This document shows positions 61,301-63,383 of a stretch of DNA of 64,000 nucleotides, one piece after another. The notes below the pieces were generated by a model, which saw only the letters and a list, made by a program, of their open reading frames with translations, ran no database searches and was not told the DNA's origin. The translations under genes and the position numbers were made by a program. Source of the stretch: Heptranchias perlo. Lineage: Eukaryota. The stretch's first letter is position 1. Each line of letters begins with the position of its first letter. The stretch is from contig NC_090359.1 in assembly GCF_035084215.1 (NCBI RefSeq), positions 24,800,001-24,864,000 on the forward strand, read 5' to 3'.

Positions 61301-63383
61301 AACAACTTGTATTTATATAGCACCTTTAACGTAGTAAAACGTCCCAAGGGGCTTCACAGGAGTGATTATCAAACAAAATTTGACACCGAGCCACATAAGA
61401 ACATATTGGGACAGGTGACCAAAAGCTCAAAGAAGCTACTTTTTTGGTCAAGTTGGTCGGGTTTAGGGAGCGTCTTAAAGGAGGAGAGAGAGAGAGGTTT
61501 AGGGAGGGAATTCCAGAGCTTAAGGCCTAGGCAGCTGAAGGCCTGGCCGCCAATGGTGGAGCGAAGGAAATCGGCAAAGCGCAAGAGGGCAGAATTTGAG
61601 AAGTGTGGTGATCTCGTAGGGCTGGAGGAGGTTGCAGAGGTAGGGAGTTTTTTAAAAAGAATTTCTGCATTGAAGATGTGACAATGTAGCTTATCTGTTT
61701 GCTTTGCAAAAATCCTTAAGATCATAATTGACTACTCATTAGCACCGAAGGTTTTCCACCTTTATTAGTTCTCACGCCCTGTGTGAGAATCTCTGGTGTT
61801 CCCGAGACAGCGGTCATGCGATCAGGATATTGTCTGTTGGCATTTCATGTCGCTCCTTGCTTTCGAGGGAGGCGGGCCCACCCTTCGCTGTGCGACTCTC
61901 CCTAGCGGCGCAAATGAGATGCGCGCTCCGCGGAATAACCTCTGCCGCAAACATCGACAAACGAGCCTGCGGTTAATTTCCAAGTAAAGAACGCGGTTAA
62001 CCGCCGGCGTGAAACCAAACGGTCCGAGACACGGGACGCCCCCCGGCTCCCAACGCACCGTGCCCCTGAGCTGCCTCACTGCAAGTCCCACTCCAGAGAC
62101 TTGAGCACATAATCCCAGGCCGACACTCTCTCAGTGCCGGTACTGAGGGAGCGCTGTGCTGTCGGAGGTGCCGTCTTTCAGATGAGACGTCAAACCGAGG
62201 CCCCCGTCTGCCCCTCTCGGGTGGACGTAGAGGATTCCCACGGACAATATTTCGAAGAAGAGCAGGGGAGTTCTCCCCCGGTGTCCAAAGTCCGCATTAA
62301 TCCCTCTACCAACATCACTAAACCAGATTATCAGATCATTATCACGTTGCTGTTTGTGGGACCTTGCTGTGCGCAAATTGGCTGCCACGTTTCCTACATT
62401 ACAACAGTGGCTACACTTCAAAAAAGTACTTCATTGGCTGTAAAGCGCTTTGGGACGTCCTGAGGTCGTGAAAGGCCCTAGATAAATGCAAGGTTCTTTT
62501 TTGCTGTTTGTCACCCCAAGATTAAGGATTAGCTTTTAATTCTGTTCGAACATGTGGGCGATATTGTGGTATTGCGGACCCCACTCGGGTTAAGTGAACA
62601 CCTCCGATCCTTTGGGCACCAGCTGACCCACACTGATGACTGATGCTCTGTCACTCCGCCTCCAGTGCCCTGCGCCAGCCTGTTGGCAGGATCCATTTTG
62701 CGGGGACGGAATTGGCCGATGAGTGGATTGGTTACATGGACGGGGCAGTGCAGTCGGGCGAGAGGGCGGCTCGAGAGGTGAGTGGACCTCTTCTTAGTTA
62801 AGGACGCACGTGGTTTGGGGGAGGGGATCGATGGGATGTGACTGCCCTAACCCTGGTGGGTTTGAGATGGTTTATCACTGGCAAGCCCCTCCTTGGTCTT
62901 GAGCAGGTAATCTGGGGCTGGCACTCTGGGGCAGTACCGAGGGAGTGCTGTGCGAGCCCCAATACTGTCTTTGCCCGACTTTCCAGCCGGGGCATCGCGT
63001 GGTTAACGCTGGCTGATCGCTGCCCCCACGAGCCAAGAGGTCCTGAGGTCAATTGTACGGTCCGCCATTGCTGCCTGGATGCAGTCGGCTGACCGGGCGC
63101 AGACTGGGGACAGAATCTGGCACATTCTCGTGTGAATCTTAGAACAACTAGCAAGTAATCAAAGACAATAACGTCTCCATGTTTACAGATATTGCTCGAG
63201 CTCGGAAAAATTCCCGTGGATGAAACCTTCCAGCCTGAACCACCACCACCCGCTGACGTCTCGCTCAACCCGACGGAGAGCTCCTGGTTGACGGGCGCGC
63301 TGCCCTCAGTAGACACCCTCCTACGATTCGGTGGGATTGCCCTAGCTGCTGGCCTGGCCTGGTTTTTCCAGTCAAAGCTTTGA
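25363..63383 (+). CDS. MAO: Flavin-containing monoamine oxidase-like protein (divergent MAO paralogue), 13 coding exons, 509 aa
   Basis: join(25363..25399,31694..31788,44719..44856,45877..45981,48198..48289,49746..49887,50821..50973,52791..52950,55485..55629,56466..56523,58529..58626,62666..62777,63189..63383) = 1530 nt, all GT-AG, in frame; [56 protein letters not shown]. Confidence 0.95.
25735..26448 (-). mobile_element. LINE 3' fragment, same family as 23669-24581
   Basis: ORF 25880..26356 is nearly identical to the C-terminal part of ORF 23531..24436. Confidence 0.88.
26470..26935 (+). mobile_element. CR1 3' fragment
   Basis: ORF 26473..26856 is the CR1 ORF2 C-terminus. Confidence 0.9.
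27520..27805 (-). mobile_element. DeuSINE fragment
   Basis: tRNA-like head and central domain as in the other copies. Confidence 0.75.
28030..28490 (+). repeat. G-rich low-complexity tract (GGGGTTAGCGGG / GGGGT units), G-quadruplex-prone
   Basis: Dozens of G3-G7 runs with short loops. Confidence 0.85.
29388..31036 (-). mobile_element. 5'-truncated CR1 (same family as the intact element at 38139-43795) nested in an older CR1 tail (~29030-31220)
   Basis: ORF 29690..31069 is almost identical to the RT of 40763..43711; host GTTGAGGCGAATATCAT|...|ATGGATGCATTTAAGGGG is split. Confidence 0.93.
31694..31788 (+). CDS. MAO: MAO-like exon 2 (LSAAKLL...[15 protein letters not shown])
   Basis: ttccag| acceptor, CAT|GTGAGA donor, 95 nt. 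Confidence 0.95.
31884..32522. repeat. 67-bp minisatellite, ~9.5 copies
   Basis: GGGTTAGATACAGAGTAAAGCTCCCTCTACACTGTCCCATCAAACACTCCCAGGGCAGGTACAGCAC in tandem. Confidence 0.95.
35001..36432 (-). mobile_element. 5'-truncated CR1 nested in the host CR1
   Basis: ORF 35084..36385 is an uninterrupted RT; (TATGACTC)n tail; GTCA on both flanks. Confidence 0.93.
37033..37624 (-). mobile_element. One-ended PIF/Harbinger fragment with a Myb/SANT exon
   Basis: Terminus GGGCCCGATTTTAGG, TATTTAAAG, then [12 protein letters not shown]...AWLEVAEEV...[22 protein letters not shown]. Confidence 0.72.
38150..39500 (+). repeat. 5' UTR tandem monomer array of the CR1 (~22 units of ~53-73 bp)
   Basis: GAGCGGAGGGAGCGTCCGATAAAAGGCGGGATTTCAGAGCGCTGAG(AACAGCTGAG)AGGAGCC repeated. 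Confidence 0.93.
39816..40763 (+). CDS. CR1 ORF1p: Zn-finger, leucine zipper and SGNH esterase
   Basis: CSSC...[26 protein letters not shown] esterase blocks. Confidence 0.92.
   Translation: MAGDPRAVSCSSCEMWEFRAPSCIPDSFTCGKCVQLQLLFDRLTALELRMDSLWSIRDAEKVVDSTFSELVTPQIKITEGDSEWVTNRQRKSRKAVQGSPAVISLQNRYTVLDTVGGDGSPGEGGSGQVHGTVAGSTAQEGRKKSGRAIVIGDSIVRGIDRRFCGRNRDSRMVCCLPGARVKDVSERLQDILEGEGEQPVVVVHIGTNDIGKKQDEVLQAEFRELGVKLKSRTSKVVISGLLPVPRASQSRNDRIAKMNTWLERWCKREGFKFLGHWNRFWGRWDQYKLDGLHLGRTGTNVLGGVFASAVGEGLN
40763..43711 (+). CDS. CR1 ORF2p: AP endonuclease and reverse transcriptase
   Basis: [51 protein letters not shown]; no stop in 982 aa. Confidence 0.96.
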   Translation: MWQGDGNRCRKSVGNKMVTETKGSKGECTEHDRTDGLRKQGKDQGKSRLNCIYFNARSLMGKADELRAWMGTWDWEVIAITETWIREGQDWQLNVPGYRCYRKDRAGGKRGGGVAFLIRENITAVVRGDISEGSPTKSIWVELKNKKGEITLIGLYYRPPNSQREIEEQICKEITDSCKKNRVVIVGDFNFPNIDWDSHSIRGLDGEKFVECIQEEFLIQYVDGPTREGAKLDLLLGNKEGQVTEVLVRDHFGTSDHNSISFKIAMEKDRSGPKVKILNWGKANFDGIRQELSEVDWESLLAGNGTSGKWEAFKSVLTRVQGKHIPYKVKGKAGRSREPWMTREIEALVKKKKEAYDMHRQLGSSGSLEEYRDCRSRVKREIRRAKRGYEIALADQAKVNPKSFYKYIKGKRVTRERVGPLKDQQGHLCAEPQEMGEILNEYFTSVFTVEKSMDVRELGEINSDVLRSVHITEREVLEVLTRIKVDKSPGPDEMYPRTLWEVREEIAGPLAEIFESSTATGEVPEDWRVANVVPLFKKGGREKPGNYRPVSLTSVVGKLLEGILRDRIYRHLERQGLIRNSQHGFVRGKSCLTNLIEFFEGVTKKIDEGCAVDVVYMDFSKAFDKVPHGRLLHKVKSHGIQGEVANWIQNWLDDRRQRVVVEGCFSNWMPVSSGVPQGSVLGPLLFVIYINDLDENLGGMVSKFADDTKIGGIVDSEEGYLGLQRDLDQLGQWADEWQMEFNLDKCEVMHFGRSNRARTYSVNGRALGRVIEQRDLGVQIHSSLKVESQVDGVVKKAFGMLGFIGQNIECRSWDVLLKLYRALVRTHLEYCVQFWSPYYRKDIIKLERVQKRFTRMLPGLDGLTYRERLDRLGLFSLESRRLRGDLIEIYKIMRGIDKVDSQNLFPKVGESITRGHRFKVRGERYKRVQRGNFFTQRVVSVWNELPEAVVEAGTILSFKKHLDSYMGKMGIEGYGPSAGNWD
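44385..44549. other. Assembly gap (165 N)
   Basis: N run following a CT-rich tract. Confidence 0.99.
44719..44856 (+). CDS. MAO: MAO-like exon 3 ([26 protein letters not shown]...)
   Basis: ggcag| acceptor, CAG|GTAAAT donor, 138 nt. Confidence 0.95.
45877..45981 (+). CDS. MAO: MAO-like exon 4 ([24 protein letters not shown]...)
   Basis: tttcag| acceptor, GAG|GTGCGT donor, 105 nt. Confidence 0.93.
46560..47465. repeat. Alternating purine-pyrimidine minisatellite (31-bp unit CACAAACGCGCGCGCGCACGTACATGCGTGC, plus CA tracts)
   Basis: Directly visible; explains the repetitive ORFs in all six frames. Confidence 0.93.
47680..48105 (+). mobile_element. tRNA-derived SINE (second family)
   Basis: GAGTTCAAATCCC B box, GGGAAGGAAACCTGCCGTC core, CTCACCACCA...TAGGGATGGGC tail. 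Confidence 0.78.
48198..48289 (+). CDS. MAO: MAO-like exon 5 ([31 protein letters not shown])
   Basis: ttgcag| acceptor, GA|GTACGG phase-2 donor, 92 nt. Confidence 0.93.
48636..49441. repeat. 26-bp C-rich minisatellite (CTCCCTCTCCCTCCCTCCCTGGCGCG), ~30 copies
   Basis: Directly visible; the G-rich minus strand is G4-prone. Confidence 0.95.
49746..49887 (+). CDS. MAO: MAO-like exon 6 ([22 protein letters not shown]...SGGAQ)
   Basis: ggcag| acceptor, CAG|GTGAGG donor, 142 nt. Confidence 0.93.
50390..50700 (+). mobile_element. DeuSINE, preceded by a minus-strand CR1 tail (~50095-50360)
   Basis: tRNA head GGTTCAAACCCC and central domain. Confidence 0.8.
50821..50973 (+). CDS. MAO: MAO-like exon 7 ([16 protein letters not shown]...)
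   Basis: ttgcag| acceptor, GTG|GTGAGG donor, 153 nt. Confidence 0.93.
51443..52735. repeat. 80-bp minisatellite, ~16 copies
   Basis: GACAGTGTGAGGGAGAGGGATTAACATCAGTAGAGATACAGTCAGTAACACAGGGCGCTGGGGGAGAGGGGTTACTGAGT in tandem. Confidence 0.95.
52791..52950 (+). CDS. MAO: MAO-like exon 8 (GRFAISAVP...[22 protein letters not shown])
   Basis: ccctag| acceptor, G|GTAAGT donor, 160 nt. Confidence 0.95.
53070..54270. mobile_element. Head-to-head inverted pair of CR1 3' fragments
   Basis: Minus copy ~53070-53628 and plus copy ~53731-54270, same family. Confidence 0.88.
54360..54880 (+). mobile_element. Degenerate CR1 3' fragment abutting a minus-strand CR1 tail
   Basis: ORF 54441..54878 ([25 protein letters not shown]...WNSLP). 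Confidence 0.8.
54945..55400 (+). mobile_element. Near full-length DeuSINE
   Basis: GGCTCAGTGG A box, GGTTCGAGTCCC B box, central domain, tail ...CTATATAAATGCAAGTC. Confidence 0.85.
55485..55629 (+). CDS. MAO: MAO-like exon 9 (equivalent to MAOA/B exons 9+10)
   Basis: [48 protein letters not shown]; ccag| acceptor, AG|GTCAGA donor, 145 nt. Confidence 0.93.
56466..56523 (+). CDS. MAO: MAO-like exon 10 ([19 protein letters not shown])
   Basis: Long pyrimidine tract then actag|, AAT|GTGAGT donor, 58 nt; phases 2/0 fit the neighbours. Confidence 0.92.
56620..58290 (+). mobile_element. Degenerate CR1 RT fragment with an internal inverted segment
   Basis: ORFs 57059..57277, 57211..57591 and 57694..57921 (KSPGPD, YRPISL, QHGF, FADD) with frameshifts. 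Confidence 0.9.
58529..58626 (+). CDS. MAO: MAO-like exon 11 ([33 protein letters not shown])
   Basis: SGGCY covalent-FAD motif; cttcag| acceptor, GA|GTGAGT donor, 98 nt. Confidence 0.96.
58776..61207. repeat. 33-bp minisatellite (GGGATACACTCACTCCCCAGTGACCCAGTGTGT), ~72 copies
   Basis: Directly visible; units vary mainly by +/- GT. Confidence 0.97.
62080..62500 (+). mobile_element. DeuSINE
   Basis: Central domain and L2-like tail as in the other copies. Confidence 0.85.
62666..62777 (+). CDS. MAO: MAO-like exon 12 ([37 protein letters not shown])
   Basis: ctccag| acceptor, GAG|GTGAGT donor, 112 nt. Confidence 0.96.
63189..63383 (+). CDS. MAO: MAO-like exon 13 (equivalent to MAOA/B exons 14+15), ends ...LAWFFQSKL*
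   Basis: tttacag| acceptor; ILLELGKIP...QPEP...LPSV...hydrophobic tail; TGA at 63381-63383. Confidence 0.93.
   Translation: MLLELGKIPVDETFQPEPPPPADVSLNPTESSWLTGALPSVDTLLRFGGIALAAGLAWFFQSKL

Follow-up and report, generated by a model that had tools for sequence, protein, structure and literature searches.

A monoamine oxidase gene of the shark Heptranchias perlo, very probably from a separate shark and lamprey lineage, with a PTS1-like end directly behind its tail helix

We analysed a 64,000-nucleotide stretch of the genome of the shark Heptranchias perlo (NC_090359.1, positions 24,800,001 to 24,864,000; hereafter the window, numbered from its first letter), which holds an intact 13-exon gene of the flavin monoamine oxidase (MAO) family. 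This gene very probably belongs to an old, separate MAO lineage that is found in sharks and lampreys and lies outside MAO A, B and F. An initial annotation of the same DNA had drawn attention to the C-terminus, where Ser-Lys-Leu (SKL), a canonical type 1 peroxisomal targeting signal (PTS1), follows a membrane anchor that was described as shortened, and had proposed that the protein may be peroxisomal or dual-targeted. The separate lineage, which that annotation missed, is better supported than the peroxisomal proposal.

A separate MAO lineage in sharks and lampreys

In a maximum-likelihood tree of 36 sequences, proteins of four sharks and the lamprey Petromyzon formed one clade (support 100/99), and MAO A, B and F fell into a separate clade (99/98) together with hemichordate, echinoderm, annelid, bivalve and snail proteins; a quick first-look tree split the sequences likewise. 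The window protein was 46–49% identical to MAO A, B, A/B and F proteins, rodent A and B included, and 54% identical to the lamprey protein, and identities between shark MAO F and the A/B types were 67–71%. All seven sharks in which the last exon of the window gene was found also carry MAO F. MAO F, our first guess for the gene, was rejected on the presence of a separate MAO F in the same seven species, on the 46–49% identity and on an approximately unbiased (AU) test against joining the two (p 2e-6). Membership in the vertebrate MAO A/B/F clade was likewise rejected by AU tests, both for joining with the A/B/F proteins of jawed vertebrates (p 2e-10) and for joining with all vertebrate MAOs (p 1e-5). 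This placement has two limits: the tree and AU tests used LG+G4 with no mixture model, on groupings defined once the quick tree had been seen, and the sequence set included neither lamprey MAO A/B/F nor shark MAO A/B. The outgroup was not monophyletic, and the shark-lamprey clade had no supported sister.

Eight shark species (seven represented by the last exon, one by a Chiloscyllium fragment) and four lamprey species yielded members of the lineage. None from rays, chimaeras, bony fishes or tetrapods was present among the best 120 of 1082 matches, which is weak evidence of loss, and the same weak evidence applies to hagfishes, with none among these 120 matches. A fragment search with the clade alignment passed 0 of 95 candidates; it covered only proteins of 30–71 residues and is uninformative on distribution. 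After sharks and lamprey, the next matches in the same set of 120 were invertebrate proteins annotated as MAO B-like (amphioxus, Gigantopelta, Potamilus and Lineus; 50–54% identity). They have in common with the window protein a two-residue deletion near position 314 and several cavity residues, but they form no supported branch with the shark-lamprey clade, their tails differ and none ends in a PTS1.

A 2025 survey of the family (Merello Oyarzun et al., PMC11833248) describes a single gene in lampreys and, among jawed vertebrates other than tetrapods, MAO A/B and MAO F; its picture of how vertebrate MAOs evolved assigns one gene to lampreys and two to fishes. MAO F, like the window gene, is an extra MAO paralogue of cartilaginous fish with a tail helix; its identity to human MAOs is 63–72%, its gating pair is Phe/Met, and it adjoins CMC4 and BRCC3 and is mitochondrial (PMC11833248). 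The window protein has a Ser/Phe gate and is only 48% identical to the MAO F of H. perlo itself (P0167). In the available table of the survey, none of four accessions of the lineage was present, while a control accession was, and the shark MAO F accessions listed there fall in another of our clusters. Goulty et al. (2023, PMC10244343) counted two lamprey MAO-group sequences, and the text of their supplementary tree has one lamprey label amid invertebrate labels, although its topology and identity could not be read; the lamprey gene may thus be present in that tree, undiscussed in the passages seen. In the open-access literature, which leaves most subscription journals outside, we found no paper naming the lineage or a peroxisomal vertebrate MAO, and the lineage is apparently unnamed. 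As the clade outside which it branches includes mollusc and annelid proteins too, the lineage implies a vertebrate ancestor with at least two MAO-clade genes, one of which was later lost, or has yet to be found, in other groups.

Protein fold and predicted active site

The window protein matched Pfam PF01593 (Amino_oxidase, E 8e-72), and its predicted structure (mean predicted local distance difference test score 80) superposed on the solved human and rat MAO A and B structures (PDB 2z5x, 1o5w and 1gos) at template modelling scores of 0.93–0.95 in Foldseek. The MAO B equivalents for the link to flavin adenine dinucleotide (FAD), the Tyr-Tyr aromatic cage and catalysis are kept (C393, Y394, Y431, K294, Q203, F339 and Y57), including those of Q206 and F343, as is a C-terminal helix after LPSV. 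On these sequence features the protein is a member of the MAO clade with putative amine-oxidase activity. FAD would be covalently attached at C393, and, as the Y394/Y431 cage and K294 are kept, we infer that amines are oxidised with release of H2O2 as in MAO A and B. The window protein differs from MAO A and B in lying outside their clade and in its gate and cavity: at rat MAO B positions 103, 119, 171, 172, 188, 199 and 326 it has I, I, T, V, G, S and F. Since several of these residues are smaller than their counterparts or otherwise unlike them (S196 for I199/F208, I116 for W119, G185 for Y188), a roomier active site and a different substrate range are predicted. Such chemistry would bear on older MAO pharmacology in shark and lamprey tissue. 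In the Scyliorhinus canicula orthologue (P0006), Gly-Phe replaces the FAD-linking Cys and a cage Tyr, which predicts non-covalent FAD or altered activity. A search of the ESM Atlas with residues 446–509 gave one match at 0.78, a lead.

The C-terminus and its support in assembled reads

Positions 63300–63383 (+) encode 27 residues and a stop codon, the C-terminal end of the last coding exon. The 64 residues of this exon match the 509-residue NCBI protein of H. perlo (P0002, XP_067828270.1) at 100% identity. Mapped to the window, P0002 covers 13 exons from 25363 to 63383 with GT..AG introns in 12 of 12 cases, and the spliced coding sequence of 1530 nt is an open frame of 509 codons whose translation is exactly P0002 plus stop. 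The last intron (junction 62777|63189, GT..AG) was removed in contigs of all four sequencing runs, and these contigs continue beyond the stop codon; the runs come from a single sample whose RNA nature is only guessed, so that the spliced contigs themselves are the evidence. Translation and spliced contigs thus bear out the earlier claim that an MAO-like protein ends in SKL. In two of the four runs, position 63330 carries a G/A variant, which gives G493S within the tail helix. The variant matches P0124, a second H. perlo record that lies on a 236-kb contig and shows two differences in all; P0124 is therefore likely an allele of the window gene.

Faulty annotation of the SKL end, identity of the gene with MAO F and decay of the gene copy are all highly improbable and largely refuted by the open 509-codon frame with canonical splice sites, the last exon spliced in reads, the same end in seven species, the separate MAO F in these species and the AU tests. 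The observations that pointed this way were NCBI isoforms in three sharks (P0008, P0151–P0153 and P0161) that end otherwise and lack the helix, the lost FAD cysteine of S. canicula, and read support from a single sample.

Tail anatomy and conservation

From LPS to its end the window protein has 27 residues, compared with 33–36 in each of the 22 measured proteins of the MAO A, B, A/B and F types (6–9 shorter). Its uncharged core has 14 residues as against 15–20 (26 in one), and its polar tail has four residues with net charge +1 as against eight or nine with +2 or +3 in 22 of 22. These measurements left out P0188 and P0037, and the Heterodontus tail (RSNL, +1) was read by eye. In the structure model a continuous 21-residue helix spans residues 486–506 (63309..63371, +) and runs through Q506; only three residues lie beyond it, the PTS1-like Ser-Lys-Leu (TCA AAG CTT, 63372..63380, +), followed by the TGA stop at 63381–63383. 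Because the model keeps this one unbroken helix, the tail anchor appears to be weakened rather than lost. The description as shortened holds with this qualification, for total length, uncharged core and polar tail. The initial annotation was also right to see an MAO paralogue with a remodelled tail.

The C-terminal tripeptide is SKL in five of seven sharks, SRL in Cetorhinus and SNL in Heterodontus. In Petromyzon and both Lampetra species, whose tails are of equal length and have a charge of 0, it is SGA. Orthologues without a PTS1-like end, which would have told against the initial proposal, are not seen among the sharks, where six of seven tripeptides are canonical ([SAC][KRH][LM]) and the seventh is SNL; the lamprey tripeptide is not canonical. 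Shark and lamprey tails align free of gaps from LPSV to the stop and have QS in common, so that the short length is likely older than the shark-lamprey split, with the putative signal made by the last two residues alone.

Among the seven sharks, 18 of 23 positions are invariant in the helix, 6 of 37 in the linker before it and 2 of 4 in QSKL. Mean pairwise identity is 0.87 in the last 60 catalytic residues, 0.52 in the linker, 0.90 in the helix and 0.80 in QSKL; the same four regions of MAO F in the same sharks give 0.96, 0.87, 0.84 and 0.57. The 27 terminal residues as a whole are thus under unusual constraint, which is no stronger for SKL than for the helix.

Subcellular location

An inserted tail anchor exposes its C-terminus on the far side of the membrane. 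We tentatively prefer, with somewhat less than even confidence, a reading in which the lineage protein oxidises amines like MAO A and B, is tail-anchored in the mitochondrial outer membrane and carries a mostly silent SKL. Once the protein has left the ribosome, the tail-anchor pathway would capture helix 486–506 and insert it, placing QSKL across the membrane and thus hiding SKL from cytosolic PEX5. The mean tail charge of tail-anchored proteins is 6.03 for peroxisomes, 1.12 for mitochondria only and 0.21 for the endoplasmic reticulum (ER) (PMC5450235). The window tail (+1) is near the mitochondrial mean and far from the strongly positive peroxisomal, PEX19-type tails, so that a PEX19 route to peroxisomes is unlikely; with a best 19-residue hydropathy of 1.36, the tail fits the mitochondrial tail-anchor mean and overlaps the ER range. 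MAO A, as well as tarpon MAO A/B and MAO F with a free C-terminus, localise to mitochondria (PMC11833248, PMC5450235). Functional yet silent PTS1 motifs are documented (PMC545800), and the broad PTS1 consensus matches 2638 of 46848 zebrafish proteins (PMC8919083).

Several observations weigh against a mitochondrial anchor with a silent SKL. The basic cluster of MAO A/B/F tails is gone. The shark helix is weak: six of seven sharks are in the lowest 10% by hydropathy of 136 tail-helix MAO homologues, and seven of the 136 are at or below the helix of the window protein, while lamprey helices are near the 42nd percentile (survey of 260 proteins, 65 of them unclassified, including the snail protein P0188). 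Conservation of the polar tail exceeds that in MAO F of the same seven sharks (0.80 vs 0.57), although the catalytic part is less conserved (0.87 vs 0.96). Both middle-position changes of the tripeptide in sharks, to R and to N, remain PTS1 variants, SNL being listed as the PTS1 of zebrafish Hacl1 (PMC8919083). Finally, a conservative change of Y to F is all that separates the end of the window protein, FQSKL, from YQSKL, a model PEX5 ligand whose Kd with the human receptor is 70–430 nM (PMC1854907).

Several of these points also bear on a second reading, only slightly less probable than the first, in which the shark SKL is a working PTS1 and targeting is PEX5-dependent, peroxisomal or dual. 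The weak, Gly/Ala-rich helix would compete poorly for tail-anchor chaperones, and PEX5, whose pairing with an SKL peptide is a structurally solved textbook case, would bind the free C-terminus of some or all newly made molecules. The folded enzyme would then be imported into peroxisomes, catalase would remove its H2O2 and the helix would hold it on the inner membrane face. The broad PTS1 consensus is matched in 7/7 sharks, the canonical one in 6/7 and neither in lampreys; by chance, proteins of this composition would have a canonical end in 0.24% and a broad-consensus end in 3.9% of cases. Two substitutions at the middle position are nevertheless not enough to tell selection for PEX5 binding apart from selection that favours a polar or basic tail, and only 2 of 4 QSKL positions are invariant compared with 18 of 23 in the helix. 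A weak helix and a PTS1-like end coincide in sharks, and a stronger helix and no signal in lampreys; the absence of a PTS1 from the latter (SGA) also counts against the reading. In Heterodontus, the shark with N in the tripeptide, R stands immediately before it, an arrangement shared with the catalase-type signal.

The initial annotation had cautioned that the hydrophobic residues upstream are atypical for a PTS1, a caveat that proved weaker than thought, as such residues raised the apparent PEX5 affinity of SKL in cells in one study (PMC7693011). A PTS1 consists of about 12 residues and includes an exposed or easily unfolded linker (PMC545800); here the residues upstream of SKL within the last 12 are a hydrophobic helix in the model, and three residues follow it. 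A review states that PTS1 targeting is unproven for membrane proteins such as SLC27A2/A4, though it gives Fndc5 as a case of it (PMC8919083), and proteins with a PTS1 plus another signal can reach or tether peroxisomes, the other signal being N-terminal in the cases seen (PMC10906886).

Aspergillus niger MAO-N is a PTS1-bearing amine oxidase and a soluble enzyme. The MAO of Guillardia theta is also an H2O2-producing flavin amine oxidase with a PTS1-type tripeptide end, and peroxisomal targeting by the final 12 residues is reported for a cryptophyte MAO (PMC9244630). In the wider family, 8 of 147 non-clade representatives end canonically, as against the 0.24% expected per protein, and so do 3 of 59 short forms, where 0.14 was expected. 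Close relatives offer no precedent and the shark end is unusual, with 0 of 113 non-clade matches (among the best 120 of 1082) ending in this way, and the figure was 0 of 136 for classified tail-helix homologues outside the clade. Only one of the eight canonical-ending representatives has a helix before the tripeptide, whereas in the window protein SKL stands directly behind a membrane-type helix. The one is a snail MAO (P0188, Bradybaena similaris, BFZ06104.1, among the 65 unclassified proteins), which falls in the clade containing MAO A/B/F and has a Gly/Ala-rich tail helix with SKL directly after it. This tail anatomy, which adds to the case for a working signal, is apparently convergent with that of sharks. 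We also observed an unnamed protein (P0214) with a strong tail helix followed by SNL.

A third reading, improbable in our view, is an ER tail-anchored amine oxidase, in which the short, near-uncharged tail is an ancestral ER-type anchor and SKL is lumenal. Tail charges of +1 in sharks and 0 in lampreys are compatible with the published ER mean of 0.21, and an ACBD5 tail lowered to +0.9 went mainly to the ER (PMC5450235). Three amphioxus homologues also have 27 residues and no polar tail, but the tree does not resolve a link to them. ER targeting is, moreover, favoured by a strongly hydrophobic helix (PMC5450235), and the shark helix is among the weakest of the family. The amphioxus proteins themselves (P0012, P0015 and P0017) have a very hydrophobic terminal helix and no polar tail, an ER-type anchor by published rules.

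Given the SGA end of lampreys, a tripeptide no better conserved than the preceding helix, and the retention of that helix, the peroxisomal or dual-targeted location proposed initially is possible but not the likeliest. We consider it rather unlikely that an old MAO lineage, one that bony vertebrates apparently lack, became peroxisomal in sharks by weakening its anchor and gaining a PTS1, with PEX5 out-competing the tail-anchor pathway for the same 27 residues. If true, vertebrate monoamine oxidation would gain a new compartment, and one tail would contain a natural switch between two signals, which could be read by comparison with a lamprey orthologue whose final two residues differ. With SKL in sharks and SGA in lampreys, these tails form a natural pair for studying competition between PEX5 and tail-anchor chaperones over one C-terminus.

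Exon layout and other features of the window

All 13 coding exons are on the + strand and follow the mapping of P0002 to the window. Exon 1 (25363..25399) contains the ATG and the beginning of the FAD-binding GxGxxG motif, and is followed by exons 2 (31694..31788), 3 (44719..44856), 4 (45877..45981) and 5 (48198..48289). Exon 6 (49746..49887) encodes the cavity residues T168, V169, G185, S196 and Q203; after exon 7 (50821..50973), exon 8 (52791..52950) encodes K294, the equivalent of MAO B K296, and exon 9 (55485..55629) F322 and F339. Exon 10 (56466..56523) precedes exon 11 (58529..58626), with C393 for covalent FAD and the cage residue Y394, and exon 12 (62666..62777), with the cage residue Y431 and the 3' junction seen in the read contigs. 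The terminal exon 13 (63189..63383), spliced in these contigs, encodes a variable Pro-rich linker, the tail helix, QSKL and the stop. By position, 12 of the 14 introns of the human MAO genes appear to have counterparts in the window gene, and the human MAO A and B genes have 15 coding exons compared with its 13. A splice-acceptor-like site ends at 25337, 25 nt upstream of the ATG, and the frame is open from there to the ATG (25338–25362); since Heterodontus and lamprey gene models also carry N-terminal extensions, the true N-terminus of the window protein may be longer, through an upstream exon or an extension.

Among open reading frames of at least 90 codons in positions 1–26000, the sole recognised non-repeat exon was an isolated V-set immunoglobulin exon at 16699–17100 (+), about 8 kb upstream of the MAO gene (Pfam PF07686, E 4e-9). 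By eye it is of B7/butyrophilin-type likeness, and it is a possible synteny marker. Intron 11 contains a 33-bp minisatellite (58782–61207, about 73 copies, 95% matches), and a second tandem array is located in intron 7 near 51200–52750. Many fragments of CR1-type long interspersed elements and of other retroelements, as expected in shark DNA, were recognised by eye at 878–3674, 14346–15335, 23501–26455 and 53184–58333.

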